Shown: positions 2,902-52,600 of the stretch, one piece after another | Layout: every line of letters begins with the position of its first letter | How positions within the stretch are numbered: the first letter of the stretch is position 1 | Origin: Pecten maximus | Taxonomy: Eukaryota | NCBI RefSeq assembly: GCF_902652985.1 | Contig: NC_047025.1 | Coordinates: 9,734,001-9,798,000 of the forward strand | Length of the DNA stretch: 64,000 nt | Reading direction: 5' to 3' | Made by a program: the position numbers and the translations under genes | The notes under the pieces: model-generated | What the model was told of the DNA's origin: nothing | Databases searched by the model: none | Seen by the model: the letters and a program-made list of their open reading frames with translations, nothing else

Positions 2902-5900
2902 CTGAGGAATAAAGCACGTACAGAATCAAAGATGATATCTGTCTAACTCTCACCATACTTACCTTTTTTTTTTTTTTTTACAAAATAATACTTTATATGA
3001 TATATCTTAATTTGTCCTTTCTGGTGATTTAAATTAATTTTTCACAAAATAACAATGAAGTTTAATTAGAATTCCTGCAGTATAAAGTTGAGGTTTAATT
3101 TGGGAGTCTGCTACCAAAATAGAAAAGATTGGTAAATATTTGATATAGGGTATATAATCAAAATTGAATGGTATCAAGCTAATTTAAGCAAATACAACTC
3201 TCAGTGATGATCAAAACTTAGCATTTTTACTTATCTAAGAAATCAATTATGGGTCAACATTAAAATCATTTATTTATTGCAAGACAGCAACAGATAGATA
3301 TTTATGTATAAATTGCTATAACATATTTCTGAAACGATCTAACAAATCACTTTTTCTGACACGATTCAATTAATTTTTAAATGTCTATAGATATACAGTT
3401 TAACTTATTTTTTCAGTGAAATTTAAGATAATAGCAGTTTCTTACACTCAAAACACTAATACCGTTATTTGTAATAGTGCATCCAAAAGCTGTTGTAAAC
3501 ACACTGAAAGCCAGTTAGCAACTCGCACTCAAAGATTGATATTCACATTCTGAAAGGCTGTTATAGACTTAAAATACACTTAAAATCTCTTTTAACATTA
3601 CTCAAACCGAAAGTCTGCTATTCATACAACAAAACCAAAATCTCCTTCAAAGAGTAAACTTTTATTTCATTTCTCATATATTGACAGGACAATGGCAGAC
3701 TTAGAGTGTTGATGGTAACTAAACCAAGATTAAGATTTTATATCAAATTTCACTTTTATAATTTATTTATCAATGAAAAATTTTCAATGTTTAACTGCAA
3801 AAAATCTTTGTAGATTATCTGGCCTGATTTTTTCCACATATTCCTTTACTTAAATTTCTTTCCAAGGAAAGCTTATTGGATTTCGGAAAAAATCTCAGTT
3901 AACAGAAATTTTATTACATTCTGTAAAGCCTTCCCATAGGAAATTTTAAGTTAAGGAACATTGATGAAACAGAGGCCTGATCATACATAGAACTGAAATT
4001 ATAGACTGCATAACAATAAATTATTCTACTAAATGGTGCACACTTACGGTTTCATACTAAGGAGATCATTGACCGGACTGGAAGGTGAAGAGGCTTTCTT
4101 GCCACTGGAGAGATTGGAGGGTGTGAATGTGTACTGGTGATTCTCGAGTTTCTCCTCGTCCGTCGAGGATTCTGTTGTTAGACTTGTAGGGTGACTCTCC
4201 TCGGTGACTGTCTCTAGTTGTATCTTGACTTGTGCAGGGCTCCGATGCACATTGTCTAGTATATCCTGGGGCTGTACAGAGAGGAAATCTCTGGTCAGAT
4301 CAATAGCTAATGTTTCAAGGAATTATTGAACTCATTCGGTTAAGGTGCTCTAAAAATATCACCAATGACACTGAACGAATATTAAACTAGGAAGTAAATT
4401 ATTCAATTCCTCATCGACTTTATTATTATCATCCTTTAATACTTACACTAAGCTTGGACCCTCCTCTCATCGACTTTAACATCATCAACCTCTAGTACTT
4501 ACACTAAGCTTGGACCCTTCTCTCATCGACTTTATTATTATCATCATCCCCTAGTACTTACACTAAGCTTGGACCCTCCTCTCATCGACTTTAACATCAT
4601 CATCCTCTAGTACTTACACTAAGCTTGGACCCTCCTCTCATCAACTTTATTATTATCATCATCCTCTAGTACTTACACTTAGCTTGGACCCTCCTCTCAT
4701 CGACTTTAACATCATCATCCTCTAGTACTTACACTAAGCTTGGACCCTCCTCTCATCGACTTTAACATCATCATCCTCTAGTACTTACACTAAGCTTGGA
4801 CCCTTCTCTCATCGACTTTAATATCATCATCCTCTAGTACTTACACTAAGCTTGGACCCTCCTCTCATCGACTTTAACATCATCATCCTCTAGTACTTAC
4901 ACTAAGCTTGGACCCTCCTCTCATCGACTTTAACATCATCATCCTCTAGTACTTACACTAAGCTTGGACCCTCCTCTCATCGACTTTAACATCATCATCC
5001 TCTAGTACTTACACTAAGCTTTGACCCTCCTCTCATCGACTTTAACATCATCATCCTCTAGTACTTACACTAAGCTTGGACCCTCCTCTCATCGACTTTA
5101 ATATCATCATCCTCTAGTACTTACACTAAGCTTTGACCCTCCTCTCATCGACTTTAACATCATCATCCTCTAGTACTTACACTAAGCTTGGACCCTCCTC
5201 TCATTGACTTTAATATCATCATCCTCTAGTACTTACACTAAGCTTGGACCCTCCTCTCATCGACTTTAACATCATCATCCTCTAGTACTTACACTAAGCT
5301 TGGTTCCTCCTCTCATCGACTTTAACATCATCAACCTCTAGTACTTACACTAAGCTTAGACCCTCCTCTCATCGACTTTAATATCATCATCCTCTAGTAC
5401 TTACACTTAGCTTGGACCCTCCTCTCATCGACTTTAACATCATCATCCTCTAGTACTTACACTAAGCTTGGACCCTCCTCTCATCGACTTTAACATCATC
5501 ATCCTCTAGTACTTACACTAAGCTTGGACCCTCCTCTCATCGACTTTAACATCATCATCCTCTAGTACTTACACTTAGCTTGGACCCTCCTCTCATCGAC
5601 TTTAACATCATCATCCTCTAGTACTACACTTAGCTTGGACCCTCCTCTCATCGACTTTAACATCATCATCCTCTAGTACTTACACTTAGTTTGGACCCTC
5701 CTCTCATCGACTTTAACATCATCATCCTCTAGTACTTACACTTAGCTTGGACCCTCCTCTCATCGACTTTAACATCATCATCCTCTAGTACTTACACTAA
5801 GCTTGGACCCTCCTCTCATTGCCTTCAACATCTCTGTCCTCTGTTCCATCATCAATGTTCTTTCATACGTGTATGCTGATATATCATTGTTAGCCTGTAA

Positions 5901-8900
5901 AAAGAACTCATTTAAACATTTTCCACAAGAAAAGTTAAAAAAAAATTGACACAGTTTGAGCTTGATTGGATATCTTTTGAGAGTGTAAATGAAAGATAGA
6001 TAATTTTTTGCAATGTTATGATGGAATGGAAACATAATAATATGATGCCTCGGTTATTTTACAGAACATTTGATTGGTGAATGTCTTGATTATGACACAA
6101 AACTTTTGATTGGTCAATATAATGCCATGGTTAAGCTATAGAACAATTGATTGGTGAATGTCTTGATTATGACACAAAACTTTTGATTGGTCAATATAAT
6201 GCTATGGTTAAGCTATAGAACAATTGATTGGTGAATGTCTTGATTATGACACAAAACTTTTGATTGGTGAACCTAATGCCTTGGTTATGTTACAGAACAT
6301 TTGATTGGAGAGTTGCCTACCATTTCCACAACCTCGACCTCTGCCTCTATTCTCAGGTGATACATAAAGATCTCCAGGTCTTTCTTCATCTGTATAGTGT
6401 TATCCTCAAGTTCTGGTCTCAGCTAAGGATTTTTATTTTATTGTATGTTGAAAATTATCTTTCTAGAAATGAAAATTTTGTGGTTGCACAATATCAGTTT
6501 CTTACAAAGAGTAGCATTTTCCTCATTTTTTTTACAAACAAACATTATTTCAAGTAATAAACACAAATCTTAATGTTACAAATCCTGCACTATGATACAT
6601 GGTATATCAAAGTGCTATACAAAAGGATACGAGCCACAGTAAATATCCTCAGACGACAATTCTTCCACACTTTATGTTGTTTCAGCAGGAACGGCAGCAA
6701 CATCAACATACCTCCATCATGTAGTCTAGTTAAGGAAACTTCCTATTCATTTATCAACCAATAAAGATAAATCATAAAACATCTGCAGATATCATACAGA
6801 TATTTCTACTCTTGTTTTATCTGTGGGATTAGATTTCTTCAAGATATTTCTTCTATAGTTATACATCTGGTGTCCCTGCCAAATGTGACATTATCTGACT
6901 ATGATGTTATTCAAAAGTATCCATGGTGATGTGACAGGGTCAGCCTTGCCAATAGTCTGATACTTCTCCAAGTTCTTGTATGATCTCATTACCACATTAA
7001 GACTAAAACAACAGGCTGATGGGCCTAGTCATGAAGATTATAAGACTCTTTCATATGTGTATATGTAGGATAGGGATATTCCACCCGAGGGGTCACAAAA
7101 TATGGTGAAACCCGAGGCTTGCCGAGGGTTTTACCACATTTTGTGATCCTGAGGGTGGAATATCCCTATCCTACATACACACATAATGAAAGAGTCTTTT
7201 TCTCTCATATCATTACCGAATTTCTGGCGAAAGTGTCCCTCAGCCATCCATTTTCTTCAATTTTTTAATTTCTTTATTTGACGTTTTTACTAAAAATACT
7301 TGTGATATTCTGAAAGATCATACCATCTTTTGGCAAACTAAGTTTGCACGCAAATTTTATTCATTTTGTGGTTAAGTGATAAACGAATGAACAGTTCGCC
7401 GATAAAAATTACCGTAACTTGACCGACTTTTTACGTGGCGGTGATCAAATTGTCAACATCCGAGAAAAAGAAGTTCTATCAACAATACTGAAAGCCAACG
7501 CCAACGTTAAAATGAGTTTTCAAACTTTACATATAATTTGATTTGCACCTCGACATATTTAATCATTTCACAGAACACACTGTACTTTTAATTGTCAAGT
7601 CAATTTTTTTTTATAAAATACTACGTCACTGCATGACGTCACGACTGTCATTGGAATTCCATTCATAGTTCAAGGATATTGAGAGTGATGTCGATCTTGA
7701 TCGCCATGACGCGGCGATGTTTCGTGGCTGGTAATTTTAAATTCACTGTGATTTTGGCAACTTCGTGTGTGAACCAGCGAACAGTGACTCTATACGAGTA
7801 TTCGATCTTTTCTGTGACATAGGATTATATGTGTTTAATCGGTTGTCTTGATGGAATGACGAAGGTAGGTCAGTCGATAACGATGATCATATTGAAAGGC
7901 TAAGATGACAGTTAGTTTTCATGGTTACTATACACAAATATAGACTCTGAGTTACAATTAAAATAAATATTTTTATATGAACATCGAGGGGTGTCATTTT
8001 TACCGAATGTTCGTTCATTTAAGAGCCAATTCCCAACTTCCAAATACACAGGTTACTGAGTAGGCCTAACAGTTACTGACAGTAGGCCTACAGACTACAG
8101 TAGAGTAAACAATATTCCGCTCAGATGAAATGTCTAATCGTTAAACCATGTAGCCCTATTGCTTTCTGCTGATATGATATATATTTATCTAAGAATGTAT
8201 GTATTTTTATAGTTAAGTCCAACATTTCAAAACCGACACTGACGATAAGGACTGTCGGATGTAAACACAAGCAGACGACGTTGTGAGAGTTGTCCCCCTT
8301 GAACGCAGGTTACTCCGCGCGCATGAAATGCTATGTAAGATAGATTTATCTTACATGGGCAAACTCTATCCAACATGGCGAGATATGAGAGAAGATTTGT
8401 TTCAAATAATGATTTAACTCATCATATCTCTGTGACCTTGAAAGTAGATAAATATTGTTCATACCAGCAGGCTATTGACCTAATATCATGACCCTGGGCT
8501 CTTGCATGGTTATTGAAAATTACTTGTTAAATGATTTTAGCATATTTGACCTCTGTGGCAGGTCAAAGTCTTTCTTTTGAACAAATTTGGTAGTCCTTCA
8601 TCCCAGCATGTCTGATATCACGACCTTGAGCATTTTCGTTACTGAGAAGAAGTTATTTAAATAATGAAACACATTTGACCCTTGTTACTTAACAAGCAGT
8701 ACATTTGACATCGAATATATAAAGCTATCATTGATTGACCATATTTTTGTTGTTGTTGTTGTTTTTTTGTTTTGTTTATTTGTTGTCCATTTCTCAGCTT
8801 CCCGAAAACACAATTCAAAATAGGGGTAGGGAGTGTTGAACCACTCACCTCGGATCTCCACCTGAGATTATGTGGCTGCATGGGGCTCTAACTGACAGAG

Positions 8901-11900: not shown

Positions 11901-14900
11901 TATATAGAATTTAAATACAGTTCCTGGAAATTACTCGAGTCCTTTCTATTTTTTATTATTTGAATTAGCCTTATAATTCAAATAATTTGAGTTTTACCCC
12001 CAATTTAGATTTAAATTGGAACTAGTACAACCCTGCACCTATGGGGATTCCCCAGGGGGTTCGGTTATCACTATGGATTGGAAATTACAAAGTTAATTCC
12101 CAAAGGTACTTCAAGGTATAATTCTACAGAGTAGCCTCTAAGAATGCCAAATATCTATAAGGTGTTGATATGAAAGTAGAAGTGAATCTTCCGCCTGTGA
12201 CAATTATACCACAAACAATCCTTGGTTGCCCCAGTGTATAGTGAATGACTCTACCTACCTCCAGTTTTTGGTATGGGGTGGACCCTGTTGTAGCCTCAGG
12301 AGAGAATATCTGGCCGCAGACATAGCCAAACCCCGGATTCCATCTCCCCACTCTTTCTCTGCACTGTCAACACAAATATTACACATAATCATATAATTAT
12401 TAATCATTTTAACTCAAGGCAGTGTGGCTTGTATATCTATGTCAAATATTCCCTGTTACTCAGATGACAGATTATCCTTAATAAGGCCATTACACCTCAG
12501 ACCTGGGTTTAATTCAGGGACACTCAGCATTTTCGAGTACTGAACACTTGTTAAATTCCACGAGGTTAATATTTTGCCAATGTTCCTATTGAATCAGTCC
12601 TAGTTCATGGATAATTAAGTCCATACCATTCTGCCTGGTAAACATTCTGCTGTAAATTTTTGTATAAATATACACTGGGTAATTATTTCTGTGCTTTGTT
12701 TGGTTTAGCGCCCTGTGAACAGCCAGGGTCATTTTCAGGTGTGGTATCCTTGTAGTAGTTGGTAACTACCTCACTGAACAACATACAGGAGGATAGTTGT
12801 GTGTCATCCAGAGTAATTAGGATAAAGTGTCTTGCCTCTGGACACAACCACAACAGCACAGACCAGCCTGTTTCTCAGCTTCAGGAGAAACATAAATTGA
12901 CATGGGTAGAAAGCTTCAAACCGCATACATGTACCTAGTATCCTCACCAGAGGTTACATGGCCAGCACTATAACCAACTGAGCTATCACGGCTCCACTGT
13001 ATGCAAAGAATATGAGTATGTAATATTGGAATATTGTAGTTATAGATATGCGTAGGACTTACCCTTTGTACTCTATATACTTGTAGATGAAGGCTGCGAG
13101 AGCGATGGCAGCCAGGGCGTAGTACCAACTTGATATAAACATAAGGGTGATACACAGGGCCATACCGATCAGTGACAAAACCCTGAAACACAACACAATA
13201 TATAGGTCAAGGTCGTACAAATCAGTGACAAAACCCTGGAACACAACATAATGTATAGGTCAAGGTCGTACAAATCTGACAAAACCCTGAAACACAACAC
13301 AATATATAGGTTTAGGTCGTACCAATCAGTGACAAAACCCTGAAACACAACACAATATATAGGTCAAGGTCGTACCAATCAGTGACAAAACCCTGAAACA
13401 CAACACAATAAATAGGTCAAGGTCGTACAAATCAATGACAAAACCCTGGAACACAACATAATGTATAGGTCAAGGTCGTACAAATTAGTGACAAAACCCT
13501 GAAACACAACACAATAAATGGGTCTAGGTCGTACAAATCAGTGACCAAACCTTGAAACACAACATAATATATAGGTCAAGGTCGTACCAATCAGAGACAA
13601 AACCCTGAAATACAAAACAATATATAAGTCAAGGTCGTACCAATCAGAGACAAAACCCTGAAACAAAACATAATATATAGGTCAAGGTCGTACCAATCAA
13701 CAACAAAACCCTGGAACACAACATAAGGTATAGGTCAAGGTCATACAAATCAGTGACAAAACCCTGAAACACAAAACAATATATAGGTCAAGGTCGTACC
13801 AATCAGTGACAAAAACCTGAAACACAATATATATGTCAAGGTCGTATCAATCAGTGACAAAACACTGAAAACATCATAATATATAGGTCAAGTTTATATC
13901 AATCAGTGAGAGAACCTTAAAACTGAACACAAAATACAGGTCAAGGTCAAACTGATCAAAGAGTGAACTCTAGAACAGCAAAATATAGGTCAAGGTCGTA
14001 TCAATTAATACTTACCAGTGATAAAATCGAAAGCGTGGTCTCCAGCTTGGTGTCCTCAGAAGGGTTTGTAGAGCACAGGCCATATTTACAAAGCCATAAC
14101 ACATCAGGAAAAACCTTAATAAACAAAATTTCAATCTTAAACATTACAAGGAACTCTCAGGAGACTTTTTTTGGTCAGTTATTCTGAACAAGATGGCATT
14201 TCAATGGAACCCAATTATTTGATATGAAAGTGATATCACTATCTTTACTAAAGTTCTCATTTCATAAAAAGTAGTTGATATTTCATATGTTCCAACTTTC
14301 AGTGTAATATTTAAAATGTTTTACTTCATTTTTTTCTTTCTTTTATAATCCATATTTTAGAGATTTGGATATAGTACTTACATTGTAATAATGGGAGCGA
14401 CGTCATCCAGACTGGCAATCAGGATTCCAATCTCTGATATAAAAACTGTCATGATGAGGGCTCTGAAGGGTTCACCCCGCTTTGTGGTTACACTGAACAC
14501 CTTGAGAAATGGGATCACTCCATCACTGCTGATGGCTTGTAGTAGTCGCGGCGCACCTGTGTCAGGTAAATAGATTTATAAGTAGTATTGAGAACCTTTT
14601 AATGTTCTATTTTTACTGAGATACACTATTAAATAATATCCTTTTTACTTTAAGGCTTGAAATGGGGGTCTCTCACTCTCTAAGTGGATGTCTATCACAA
14701 GTCCATTATAAGGAAGACTTTTTGGCAAAGATAATGATGTAGTGGATACTATGAGTTACTTCCCTTTGACAATGTAACACAGTGCATAATCAAGATGTCA
14801 TAAGAAAGGCATGTTGGGGCCATAATGGCATCAATACAATAGACATGATTGATATATTTTGAAATAATGGACCACAGAGCCCCACACCCATGGCAGTACG

Positions 14901-17900
14901 GAAAGTCTACATACCTGTTAGACTATGGAGCCCCACACCCATGGCAATACAGAAAGTCTACATACCTGTGAGACTATGGAGCCCCACACCCATGGTAGTA
15001 CGGAAAGTCTACATACCTGTTAGACTATGGAGCCCCACACCCATGGCAATACAGAAAGTCTACATACCTGTGAGACTATAGAGCCCCACACCCATGGCAG
15101 TACAGAAAGTCTACATACCTGTGAGACTATAGAGCCCCACACCCATGGCAGTACGGAAAGTCTACATACCTGTGAGACTATGGAGCCCCACACCCATGGC
15201 AGTACGGAAAGCCTACATACCTGTGAGACTATGGAGCCCCACACCCATGGCAGTACGGAAAGTCTACATACCTGTTAGACTATGGACCCCCACACCCATG
15301 GCAGTACAGAAAGTCTACACACCTGTGTGACTATGGACCCCCACACCCACGGTAGTACAGAAAGTCTACATACATGTGAGACTATAGACCCCCACACCCA
15401 TGGCAGTACAGAAAGTCTACATACCTGTGTGACTATGGAGCCCCACACCCATGGTAGTACAGAAAGTCTACATACCTGTTAGACTATGGAGCCCCACATC
15501 CATGGCAGTATGGAAAGTCTACATACCTGTTAGACTATGGAGCCCCACACCTATGGCAGTACAGAAAGTCTACACACCTTTGAAACTATGGAGCCCCACA
15601 CCCATGGCAGTATGGAAAGTCTACATACCTGTTAGACTATGGAGCCCCACACCCATGGCAGTACGGAAAGCCTACATACCTGTGAGACTATGGAGCCCCA
15701 CACCCATGGCAGTACGGAAAGTCTACATACCTGTGAGACTATGGAGCCCCACACCCATGGTAGTACAGAAAGTCTACATACCTGTTAGACTATGGACCCC
15801 CACACCCACGGTAGTACAGAAAGTCTACACACCTGTGTGACTATGGAGCCCCACACCCATGGCAGTATGGAAAGTCTACATACCTGTTAGACTATGGAGC
15901 CCCACACCCATGGTAGTACAGAAAGTCTACATACCTGTGTGACTCTAGACCCCCACACCCATGGCAGTACAGAAAGTCTACACACCTGTGTGACTATGGA
16001 GCCCCACACCCATGGCAGTATGGAAAGTCTACATACCTGTTAGACTATGGAGCCCCACACCCATGGAAGTATGGAAAGTCTACATACCTGTGATACTATG
16101 GACCCCCACACCCATGGCAGTACGGAAAGTCTACATACCTGTTAGACTATGGAGCCCCACACCCATGGCAGTACGGAAAGTCTACATACCTGTTAGACTA
16201 TGGAGCCCCACACCCATGGTAGTACAGAAAGTCTACATACCTGTGATACTATGGAGCCCCACACCCATGGCAGTACGGAAGTCTACATACCTGTGAGACT
16301 ATGGAGCCCCACACCCATGGCAGTGTGGAAAGCCTACATACATGTGAGACTATGGAGCCCCACACCCATGGTAGTACAGGAAAGTCTACATACCTGTGAG
16401 ACTCTGAAGGCCTGCTCCTAGTGTAGACAGGAAAGAGCCTATCAGGATAACCCATTCGTTAGGCCAGGCTAACTTGGCCACCACCAGACCTCCATTAATA
16501 CTTTCACCAAACCTGAAAGTCAAAAGGTTGTCAATACAACATCAAATAGCCCTTATAAGTCACATTCCTCATACAGAAGATATCATTTAGAAACCATCCA
16601 ACAGTTTTTTTTAATTGGAATTGGAAACATCCTTTTCCATCCTTTTCCTGTATTCAATGATAACATTTCAGCAGTCATTAATTAGATTCTATATCAATGA
16701 TTTATAATTTTGCATATTGATTTGTTCAAAAGAATCCAGTTGTACATAAAGAATGTTTTAAAAATGAAATACAGTTTCAAACTAATTATAAGCATTGATG
16801 TCAATATTTTTCAGCTTCATAGGGGTAGGTATGTAAACGTTTGTAAGAATCTGCTACGTTCCTCAAAACTAATGATTACAAGCTTCAATTATGCCTTTAA
16901 TTTGTGGATTTATTATGAATGAATTATGCTTACTATACTAATACTTACTTGTCTCTGAGGAGATCTCCTTCTACTGTCCCAGCAAAGAAAATTACACTGG
17001 TGATGTCTACAGGGGCTAAGGAATTTATCATCAATACAACATTTCTCAACACAGTCATCAGGCAGTTACAATAACTTACAGTTCTTTTGATCCTAATTCT
17101 AACACTTTTTTAGCCATCTTACTCATATGTTCTCAGCCATTCTAACTCTCATATTGTTTAGACATCCAAATTTTCAATTTTCTCTCCAATAATGCATAAG
17201 TTCTTTATAGGTCTGTTTGCTCTTTTTTTTTCTTTACATTGTTTCCTCATTTCAATTATTCCTGTTAGTTATAAAATAGCTCTGCAGGGTGCATGGTGTT
17301 ACTGTTTTAACACATACATCTCTAAATAAATCTTTTATTGTTTAACTGTCAACCTAAAGGATACAGACAAATGAAGTGGTTGCTATGGCGGCGATGGTAC
17401 CTGTTGGTATGGACCTGGAGGCATCGGCCAGATCGCCAGATCTGTTGGAACCCGCCATGATACCTGAAAGGTCAGAGGTCAAAAATAAAAATATTCTAAC
17501 AAAATTACAATGTAGTCAAGATATGCTACCTTGCTTATCAAGAAGACTTCTGGTATCAGATTACTGTTTATATTGTTGATATTTCTAAGTCATTTACCTT
17601 TGTGAATCACAGTTATTTATATGCTATACCCTTATTGCACACGGTTATAAGAATTACCACTCTCACAAATGTCAAATATATAAAGAATATTAACTATATT
17701 ATGTAAAATATTGGAGAGTCTGAGGCAGTAGTTCCAAAGACTATCTATCAAATATTTTATATGATAGAAACTTTGAAGTTTTACCTTACTTAACACTAAA
17801 TGGGATGTGGTTTGATACATTTTAAATGTTAAGCTAGTATTTACCTGTACAGGAAGGGAAGTAAATAGCCAATAACACCATGAATGATGACGTAACATCG

Positions 17901-49022: not shown

Positions 49023-49612
49023 GAGGCCCAATGGGCCTGTATCGCTCACCTGGCTCTACAGCAACTTTGAAGTTGATGAGGTCATTTCTAAAGATACTAT
49101 GTTGATTACCTCTTTATTCAAATAGCATTGTAAGCTAGTTTTATTCATATTAAACATTTTCTAGTCCTTCATTCCAGCATTCTATTGGCCTAATATCAGG
49201 TCTTGGAGGCTCTTGGCTATCGCAAATTTCACCCGTGACCTTGAATGTAGGTCAAGGTCATTTACTTGAACAAAATTGGTAGCCCTTCACCCCAGCATGC
49301 TACAGGCCCAATATCAAGTCCCTGGGCCTCTTGGTTATTGAGAAGAAGTCGTTTGAAGATTATAGCCTATTTGACCCATGTGACCTTGAATGAAGGTCAA
49401 GGTCATTTATTTGAACAAACTTTGTAGCCCTTCAACCCAGCAAGCTACAGGCCCAATATCAAGTCCCTGGGCCTCTTGGTTATTGAGAAGAAGTCGTTTG
49501 AAGATTATAGTCTATTTGACCCATGTGACCTTGAATGAAGGTCAAGGTCATTTATTTGAACAAACTTTTTAGCCCTTCAACCCAGCAAGCTACAGGCCCA
49601 ATATCAAGTCCC
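49018..49612. mobile_element. Truncated HINE-like element with ~146-bp internal repeats at the duplication junction
   Basis: AACAAGAGGCCCAATGGGCCTGTATCGCTCACCTG start and three gtgaccttgaatg.aggtcaaggtca units. Confidence 0.75.
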
Positions 49613-52600
49613 TTTGATTAAAAAAGAAAAACCAATAGCCACGTACATTAAACATAAAGCTCTGTAAATCTACAACACAAAATTTAGATAGAATATCTGA
49701 AATACGTGACTAAAAACTTTTCCTCAGCTTTTCCTCAACAAATAATCATCTTTCCTGCCTTTAACTTTAACTTGCTAACATAAAACTGGCGAATTAAGTA
49801 CATCTACAAGATATTTGGCATGAATATAACAACAATTATATCAAAATATCTCCAAATTTAAGAGAATAATCACGTTTCCCGTTTAAAGAATCTGTTAATA
49901 GCTGATAAGAAATACTCCTTAATGACAATAATTGTTTATTATAGAGGAAATCCACTGGTAATTAACCCTTAACATTATTGAGAATTTGATGCTTCCTCGG
50001 TGTATAGAATGTATACTTCAATAGAAGTTCTCTGTGTTAGCATTCATTTTACTGAGGGTTTTTTTGTCTTTGGAGATTTTTAACCTCAAACAGTTTAAAA
50101 TCAGCTAAAAGTCGGGGAGGGCTTCATTACAGGATAAAGGAATACAAATATCATCCAAACATACAAAAAGGACAAGAGATCCCAGAAGGATCTTGGCACC
50201 CACCATTAAATTATCTTTATCAGATCTTTCACTGATCTTTTCTCTACTTTTCTCATCTTTCCTCTTTTCCTCTTAATATAAAATTGGAGAAAGAGCAGAA
50301 CTTTTTCAGGAATACCGATGTTACACACTGCCAATATCAAATTCATATAATCCATGAAGAACAAAATAATTTTAAAATAGCATTACACGTAACAAACTTC
50401 TACTGTAAAATTCCAATGGCCACCTATTGGCCATTTCGTTTTCCGATAAAACCTCAAATTTCAATATACACACCTAGAGAACAAGAGTCTAAATTTGAGA
50501 AAGTTCCATGAAGACCTATCCGAGAAATAGCGATAAAAATCCTCATTTCTCTCTTTTCATATGATGAACCACAGACAAACAATAACATCCACATAATGTG
50601 TCCAGATTAGTTGTACATCTATAAATCTATCAATCTGCATTTGTTTAATTCTTGGCTCAAACAAACTCCAATTAAAAGTAACGCTGAAGTGGATTTATGT
50701 CTAAACAACAAACAGATGTAGTTTACGAAAACCGACTTGGTTTGTTGAGTAAATGTAGAAGATCTACACAGATATATCTCCCTATAAAATGTCGGTAAAC
50801 TGTTCCAGCAAGAACTTTAACCAGCATTCTTATAGCTTTGCCAAAATGGTAGAAATCGCTAGAACTGGAGGTCATCAATTGGTTTTCAAAATAAACAAAA
50901 AGTGGAACCGGGAGGGCTCAGCAAGTTCAACCTTTGACCTTTTAACCTTGTCTGGTGATTACCAAAATCAATTGTAGACCTGGATGGTGTGATGCTATCA
51001 TGTGAATACCAACTAAATCTGTCCAGGGGTTCATGAGATGTACATATCATACATATACTTCTTTTATTTTAAAAGTGGTCATCATCTGTAACCTTTGACC
51101 TTTAAAGACTGAAGATCACCAAATATACTGAAAAAAAGATGTTGTATGAACTAAATCTGTCCAAAGGTTCAAGAGATGATCTTGTCCACATATTAGCTTT
51201 TAAATTTCACAGACAGAGCTGCACTCATGCAGTAGATACGGTACACATACATGGTATCTTATTTAATCAATCACAAGGTCAGGCCTAACACCGTCATACC
51301 TGTCATGGCTGAAGGTAAAAATTTCATCTAGATATCTGACAATACCATCTGTTACACAAATCTGTTCGGGACAGCTAGTTCAAGGTTATCAGAAAAGGTT
51401 TAAGTTGCACATTAACGATCTCAAAACCAAGGTTTGATATCTCTTCTGTAGTTCAGCAGGTACAAATCTTTCAAAATTAGAAATTTCTTTAATTCTTGTT
51501 CCACAAACATAAAACATGTCCTTCAGGTTTGTATTGGATTAAATGTGACGTTTTGGTGACTAAACTCTTTCACAAAATTTTGTTTGATACCCTAATTTTC
51601 AAAACATTCTTTCACAAAATTTTGTTCAATAACCCAATTTTCATAACAATCTTTCAAAAAAAATTATTTGATAAGCTATTTTTAGTCTTTATTTTTCTTT
51701 TTTTTTTCTTTTTCTTTTTCTTGGGTTGGGCCTTGGGGGAGGGGGTGGGGAGAAGGAAACTGGGCCTTGGGGGAGGGGGTGGGGAGAAGGAAACTGGGCC
51801 TTGGGGGAGTGGGTGGGGAGAAGGAAACTGCACCACCATTCCTTCAGTACATAAAAAATTGAGCAACATTTTACATATTCTCTTTTTTTAACAGTAGAAG
51901 CTCAATCCTTTTAACAAATCCAAGATTAGGAAATATTACATTGTTCCACAAACCTATAAACGTCGGGAACTGAAATGCACATTAATATAATCACCCACTC
52001 CTCGATATATACACCATGTATATATGTACACCACATTCCTGGATTTCATCTTCTTCAAGATAAAAGCTGTGAATTTTTAACAGTCCCCAGGCTATAAAAT
52101 CCCCATCATCCGTTTTTCCATTATCTATAAATGTAACCAAACCAAGAAGATGCTGGCAAAGAAATGCATTTTTACAATGGAACGGTGACGAGATTGGCGT
52201 AAATTTCCAAAGAGGTTATCAATCAGGGATAAACAGCAGTGATATATATATGGTATATGCAGCAATAATTCCATGCTTAAGTACAAACATTTAAGTTGAA
52301 GTACACGTCACACGAATATCGGGAGCCACACCAGGCATCACAGTACACCTCCCCCCTGAAGACCCTTCAAACCTCTCAACAAAAAATTCCAATATTTACT
52401 AACAATGCATGCTTCCAGATGAAAAAGGCTGAAAACAGAGATTCCAATAATCCACATCTGTTCAACTTATAAATCTGGTATCGACAAAAGGCCTTGAGGG
52501 CCTGTGTGGATATCTTCATACTTGAAGGTTCAGAAGGATGCTATCAAAGAGCATGTGGAAGGACTTGGTGTCTGTAAATATAAGACTGTAGCTAATTTGT

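Follow-up and report, generated by a model that had tools for sequence, protein, structure and literature searches.

Examination of a 64,000-nucleotide stretch of the Pecten maximus genome (NC_047025.1, positions 9,734,001 to 9,798,000; hereafter the window) reveals a minisatellite that repeats the end of a KCC exon together with its 5' splice donor (Table 1). We consider this array to be tolerated rather than selected and most likely neutral, and put the probability of this reading at roughly 0.8.

Table 1. Features of the KCC gene in the window, in window coordinates
Feature	Position	Strand	Evidence
Donor minisatellite, 56 bp, 25 units, exon homology up to 5842	4415..5842	-	TRF, unit-by-unit alignment, single genomic locus
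KCC coding exon, 33 aa, ending MRGGSKLS, residues 963-995 of P0002	5796..5894	-	exact P0001/P0002 mapping
Authentic 5' splice donor GTAAGT, in unit 1	5790..5795	-	protein mapping and RNA contigs
First in-frame TGA past the authentic donor	5778..5780	-	translation of read-through
Latent 27-nt in-frame segment, first copy, AAG before and GT after, 29 nt from preceding donor	5740..5766	-	
Repeat-free part of the intron, 143 nt, including the real acceptor	4272..4414	-	
Downstream KCC exon (PQDILD...)	4048..4271	-	protein matches and RNA contigs
KCC acceptor minisatellite, 53 bp x 15, reaching 20 nt into the exon starting at 13182	13163..13948	-	TRF and protein mapping
Second KCC donor minisatellite, 51 bp x 30, spanning the 16393 donor	14877..16435	-	TRF and protein mapping

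The host gene

Protein mapping assigns the host to a KCC (SLC12A4/6-like) gene, the identity that the initial annotation had proposed from the letters of the DNA. The exon at 4271-4048 is a 100% match to the Pecten maximus solute carrier family 12 member 4/6-like proteins (P0001 and P0002) and an 82-86% match to four records of three other scallops. P0002 maps to the minus strand in 23 blocks, from 40404 to 4047, which include 5894-5796 and 4271-4048, and its last exons fall before the start of the window. The closest solved relatives of the protein are human KCC3, KCC1, KCC4 and KCC2, and its YTYERT stretch, the threonine of which we take to be T991 of KCC3, aligns with KCC3. In KCC3 two threonines, T991 and T1048, are the canonical regulatory ones (PMC8280820).

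The exon end that lies under the array (5796-5819) is a spot of indels among scallops, with GG, GGG, GGGG or GVGV preceding the final KLS or SKLS, and the rest of exon 5796-5894 is nearly invariant among them. Coding alleles unlike the assembly occur at 4089 (runs X8, X9 and X10) and at 5808 (X5, X8 and X10).

Structure and origin of the donor array

TRF delimits the array in the window at 4410-5832, with a period of 56, 25.3 copies, 95% matches and a score of 2554. Divided at each minus-strand ATGAG, it falls into 25 units of 55-59 bp between 5819 and 4415 (22 of 56 bp, two of 59 and one of 55), and these amount to 16 distinct sequences, nine units being identical to the commonest one. GTAAGT is intact in 24 of the 25, a single A being missing from that of unit 4, and the roughly 25 tandem donor copies first claimed for this region are thus borne out, with 23 spare intact donors beyond the authentic one. 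Of the GTAAGT hexamers in the window, 42 lie on the minus strand, 24 of these within the array, and 11 on the plus strand. The intron is 1524 bases long, and the array takes up 1381 of them. Given one unit plus the repeat-free remainder, the intron before the array would have measured about 175 nt. Variants common to several units are grouped locally (in units 2-5 and 8, and in units 21, 23 and 25), and the most diverged unit is the last one (25). A 22-nt pattern drawn from the unit has all 20 of its exact genome matches at the array locus, and all 12 DNA matches also fall there.

Assemblies can mis-size long tandem arrays, and the copy number given here is an assembly figure. The existence of the array as an artefact of assembly is nevertheless refuted by its distinct units with shared variants in local runs, and by contigs that join unit to unit in all three DNA-type runs (three samples); we give such an origin practically no credence. 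The depth of the unit-to-unit contigs against that of the flank in these runs is 171 against 11, 248 against 33 and 425 against 35, values of contig depth that do not translate into copy number; one of the runs, X1, could come from the source sample. The flank downstream of the array is joined in X5 to a unit of the consensus type and not to the diverged unit 25, which indicates that the array end differs between haplotypes.

The initial annotation had assigned 24 nucleotides of the unit to the exon and 32 to the intron, a division that we correct to about 47 exon-derived and 9 true intron bases. The 24 bases of the exon end are identical in the unit and a further stretch of about 23 exon-derived bases is diverged: the 23 seemingly intronic bases before each ATGAG, set in register against 5842-5820 of the exon, agree with it at 16 of 23 positions (binomial P ~1e-4 at a 30% background), and the same register comparison one period further up gives 23 matches in 56. 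From this likeness the unit is likely to consist of about 47 exon-derived bases plus GTAAGTACT, its 5' part having drifted in the copies; an alternative reading is that a chance resemblance to the exon pre-existed and seeded the duplication. If the unit is indeed exon-derived, the array would have been born by tandem duplication of about 47 exon and 9 intron bases and would then have grown by slippage or unequal exchange, the exon retaining its coding sequence as the copies drifted and gained stops. Homogenisation of the exon end in lock step with the array was also considered; it is weakened by the exon allele at 5808, a synonymous one, which X5 carries but which is absent from the X5 array contigs.

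Donor usage in RNA

Contigs of four of the RNA-type runs listed, from four studies, were compared on 3700-4500, an interval that covers the acceptor and the last unit and lies outside the true exon; one of the runs is RNA on record and three are guessed to be RNA, and at contig depths of 4-14 rare forms are dropped. In all four RNA-type runs the authentic donor is joined to the 4271 acceptor, the contigs displaying the main product. Those of X10 and X8 run from 4271 into sequence with exon-specific bases upstream of ATGAG. Those of X6 and X9 bear an apparent joint 4271-4447 with three mismatches, the very number that distinguishes the exon from the copy, and the X9 contig continues past the joint into exon sequence. 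Use of the last spare donor was rejected as the explanation of this joint, which is a mapping artefact in view of the three exon-specific differences and the exon sequence that follows. The X6 contig (576 nt, depth 8.54) recurs in X7 with the same length and depth, probably as one data set, and covers the exon at 5796-5895 with 0 mismatches and joins 4271, its loose spliced ends on either side being the neighbouring exons. No RNA contig lies over the array-only bases 4402-4428 and 4484-4500, a lack of cover that proves nothing. At the protein level, KLS-PQD is found with no insert in five of six records (P0001, P0002 and P0004-P0006, from this and three other scallops), and the sixth model lacks the KLS-PQD region.

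The joins of spare donors to 4271 that had been proposed as a check are thus missing from these contigs, which join only the authentic donor; a small leak could escape at depths of 4-14. A leak of a few percent may have been missed. Full silence of the spare donors is not guaranteed, given that human 6-16 and CBS use their two nearest pseudo-sites (PMC1557585). Since 24 nt are identical between the exon end and the copies, a split-read test requires anchors longer than 25 nt, and with shorter ones short-read aligners give false use of spare donors.

We propose that, as experiments on human F7 showed, the spliceosome would pick the functional donor lying furthest upstream, and that the spare donors are likely silent passengers excised with the intron. 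This extension is made with the caveat that the F7 rules derive from mammalian cells, whereas the present host is a mollusc. The retention of GTAAGT in 24 of the 25 copies, each offering seven contiguous U1 matches, speaks against silence but fits recent homogenisation equally well.

Possible regulatory roles

Taken together, the regulatory readings of the array appear unlikely. Read-through past the donor had been predicted to meet an in-frame stop, and a TGA is indeed found there (Table 1): the product gains VSTRG-stop in place of its last 149 residues, and any later donor leads to the same stop at 5780. At least three junctions lie downstream of it (at 4271, at 4048 and at the boundary of the last two exons), and the stop is well upstream of these later junctions, as in poison-type AS-NMD, an arrangement that comes into effect only if a spare site is used. 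Such a layout would suit a form of unproductive splicing tuned by copy number, in which later donors used at a low rate would give the premature stop and a lower KCC dose, with allele length setting the leak. Even from the last spare donor, 175 nt remain to the acceptor; the array end varies between individuals, and human 6-16 and CBS are described in PMC1557585 as using their nearest pseudo-sites, all of which speaks for it. Weighing against it are the authentic junction in all four RNA runs and the presence in the genome of many similar arrays, from which this one is not singled out; the same source also reports that later sites in F7 fail to compete even when strengthened to a consensus value of 91, and that position and not number decides there. 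The copy-number-tunable switch of the initial annotation is thus left unsupported by RNA contigs that show the authentic junction and by the commonness of such arrays, and we regard it as improbable. Were later donors used on rare occasions, the truncated product would likely be cleared by NMD at low cost; NMD of such a +56n leak is surmised by analogy with other animals.

A candidate landing array for the U1 snRNP, acting uncut as an intronic enhancer or as a guard against premature polyadenylation, appears more doubtful still. It would draw on 24 sites that match U1 at +1..+7 and to which U1 could bind, none of them hidden by a stable fold: RNA folds of the units are no better than those of shuffles (z +1.0 to +1.2). 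Masking of the donor by structure was dropped as a candidate, a small hairpin with the donor in its loop being seen in minimum-energy folds and missing from two of three centroids. The authentic donor, however, matches the U1 5' end at +1..+7 only and not at -3..-1, and its score, 3.1 by our own approximate consensus weights, is below the median of 4.0 for 354 called donors; an ancestral intron of about 175 nt would moreover have had scant need of protection. Least credible of the three is a reservoir of 27-nt in-frame microexons (SMRGGSKLS) that would lengthen a C-terminal loop of KCC. The latent segment noted earlier is present as described, in frame, free of stops and bounded by AG and GT, and the number of glycines in the matching loop differs among scallops. 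Its standing as a usable microexon did not hold, a functional acceptor with a pyrimidine tract before an exon of 3-27 nt being absent: on the same weights its acceptor comes to -5.9, whereas the two real acceptors nearby have scores of 5.5 and 6.3 and the 5th percentile of 352 called acceptors stands at -1.3, and the sequence upstream is purine-rich. Just 29 nt separate neighbouring segments, a length too short for an ordinary intron, and the insert occurs in none of six protein records and in no RNA contig examined. A +27n ladder is very unlikely. The neutral reading of the array is in turn opposed by an observation from the wider genome, where more true donors than controls are spanned by arrays, an excess unexplained by purely random array birth.

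Frequency of donor-spanning arrays in Pecten maximus

Exons were sampled by a Pfam search of the genome, and an array was defined by a period of at least 15 and at least 3 copies. Set 1 comprised 215 of 226 myosin, kinesin and SLC12 matches among those listed, with small contigs and KCC excluded; after length filters 209 were kept, in which 162 donors and 154 acceptors were called (score >2). Set 2 comprised kinase and ABC exons, 162 of 217 among the matches listed, of which 17 had no fetched DNA and 145 were kept, with 108 donors. Arrays occupy 22% of set 1 (851 kb) and 15% of set 2.

In set 1, nine of 162 donors have an array that begins in the last 40 exon bases and runs into the intron, where the deep-intron rate predicts 1.8 (P 1e-4, for a 40-base bin chosen after the data were seen; P 0.01 with an 80-nt bin). 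The donor test was fixed before set 2 was examined, and there 7 of 108 donors are spanned against 1.2 expected (P 2e-4). Combined, 16 of 270 donors (5.9%, about 1 in 17) are spanned by a minisatellite, a frequency that we regard as solid; by eye, one of the 16 was mis-called by one unit and another has lost the donor from its later copies. Given this rate, it is ordinary for KCC, with about 23 donors, to have two that are spanned (P 0.40). Acceptors are not enriched in the same bin, where 2 of 154 and 2 of 101 are at chance level, and 6 of 255 are spanned with an 80-nt bin; an excess of array starts just inside the introns of acceptors in set 1 (8/151) was not repeated in set 2 (2/100).

Control positions lie at array starts in 332 of 23006 cases (1.4%), donor-like motifs on the antisense strand in 53 of 1953 (2.7%), and those on the sense strand away from known exons, which include unannotated true donors, in 87 of 2617 (3.3%). 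The excess of true donors is thus about 4-5-fold over the position-only control and about 2-fold over the motif-matched ones (P 0.008 antisense and 0.037 sense, both optimistic because the motif-control sites are clustered), and its shrinkage against donor-like motifs implies that part of the enrichment is composition. The comparison of donors with acceptors gives P from 0.011 to 0.075, depending on the bin and on whether the mis-call is dropped. A donor-specific excess is therefore no more than hinted at. We tentatively suggest, at somewhat below even odds, that minisatellites of the scallop genome preferentially arise, or find a safe harbour, at true 5' splice sites, at about 1 in 17 donors and in excess over acceptors, with thousands of private donor arrays genome-wide if the sample is typical. 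The excess over acceptors could arise if spare upstream acceptors are chosen first and purged, and spare downstream donors are ignored.

Arrays beginning in the first 40 intron bases after donors also exceed expectation (6/162 and 5/107). The donor-spanning minisatellites include those of kinesins (L141, L079, L084, L083, L126, L091, L131 and L098), kinases (L310, L327 and L257) and ABC transporters (L244, L215 and L252), and reach 54 copies (L098, 49 bp). Acceptor-spanning arrays are found at L086, L117, L100, L198 and L310, with up to 41 copies (L086, 49 bp), and in L310 both ends of one exon are under arrays. No published genome-wide count of donor-spanning arrays was found in a search that left subscription journals outside, and the accessible text of PMC10078293, PMC12783039 and PMC2812944 contains none.

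Other arrays in KCC and the window

Two further arrays lie over splice sites of the same gene (Table 1). In the 51-bp donor array, 32 of 43 aligned columns of the unit match the exon end and are followed by 9 intron bases, and CAG-GTATGT is kept in most copies. The 53-bp acceptor array has its pyrimidine tract and CAG intact in most copies, and across 13163-14014 degenerate copies take up nearly all of the intron as far as its upstream donor. By the annotated protein, the last copy would be the one used. Exact pattern matches for the three KCC arrays number 20, 21 and 4, each set being in one place, and an origin from a dispersed element is out on this ground.

An array of 77 bp x 3.2 at 6063-6308 begins 13 nt downstream of the donor at 6320, which lies outside it. 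Between about 45900 and 52900 of the window, upstream of the mapped exons, open-frame translations recur some 3.9 kb apart (47017/50917; 48420/52215), which suggests that several kb were recently duplicated in tandem or appear twice in the assembly. A repeat of 145 bp x 2.6 at 49235-49613 is rich in TGACCTTGA, presumably a motif of bivalve non-autonomous elements, and the 53-bp acceptor array has a similar motif.

The KCC locus itself is of little import, its layout being known from human and amphioxus and its protein apparently unaffected. Of greater interest than any single locus is the sampled frequency, by which arrays of this kind would be a bulk feature of the genome and no curiosity. 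A donor-specific excess, if confirmed annotation-wide, would tie splice-site choice to the places where minisatellites are born or survive. If donors are indeed preferred birthplaces, the scallop would hold a large natural set of length-variable tandem donors in an invertebrate, which would test first-come donor choice and repeat-driven expression variation.

Comparison with known splice-boundary minisatellites

The scallop KCC array matches a known type, the splice-boundary minisatellite of human F7 and of the amphioxus mirages: its head-to-tail units fall within 10-100 bp and sit at one locus, unit 1 spans a real boundary, the donor is reiterated in later units, and the authentic site gives the main mRNA. 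In the account of Borensztajn et al. 2006 (PMC1557585), the first unit of the 37-bp VNTR of human F7 intron 7 lies over the exon-intron boundary, the most upstream donor is used, and experiments point to an oriented choice of the first site. The scallop array resembles F7, so described, in that unit 1 spans the boundary, identical donors repeat into the intron and the first donor is used. It differs in having 25 units of 56 bp, each with exon bases of which 24 are identical and about 23 diverged, whereas F7, in the same source (PMC1557585), has units of 37 bp, 5-9 in number, that include 4 exon bases, belongs to a mammal and not a mollusc, and was tested with minigenes. Human 6-16, with an authentic donor and 25 pseudo-sites, and the similar CBS intron 13, LMNB2 and PDGF (cited in PMC1557585, as far as accessible) share the layout and a comparable copy number. 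Unlike 6-16 and CBS, in which that text has the two nearest pseudo-sites also used, the scallop RNA, at low depth, displays no such use.

The amphioxus mirages, known in the accessible text of PMC3087553 and PMC3902484 from Adh3, the globins BflGb6 and BflGb9, troponin C and PGBD5, are minisatellite-like, occur at donors and acceptors and are reported to leave splicing undisturbed; these sources give case reports and suggest that the feature may be general in cephalochordates. Ebner et al. 2010, in the part available (PMC3087553), describe mirage turnover with divergent end units. As far as their accessible parts show, PMC1557585 and PMC3087553 portray such arrays as mostly silent in human and amphioxus genes. 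The scallop arrays are like the mirages, as described there, in their invertebrate host, their position at donors and acceptors, their diverged end unit and their local variant runs; unlike those case reports, the bivalve offers a sampled frequency (16/270 donors and 4-6/255 acceptors) and three arrays in one gene.
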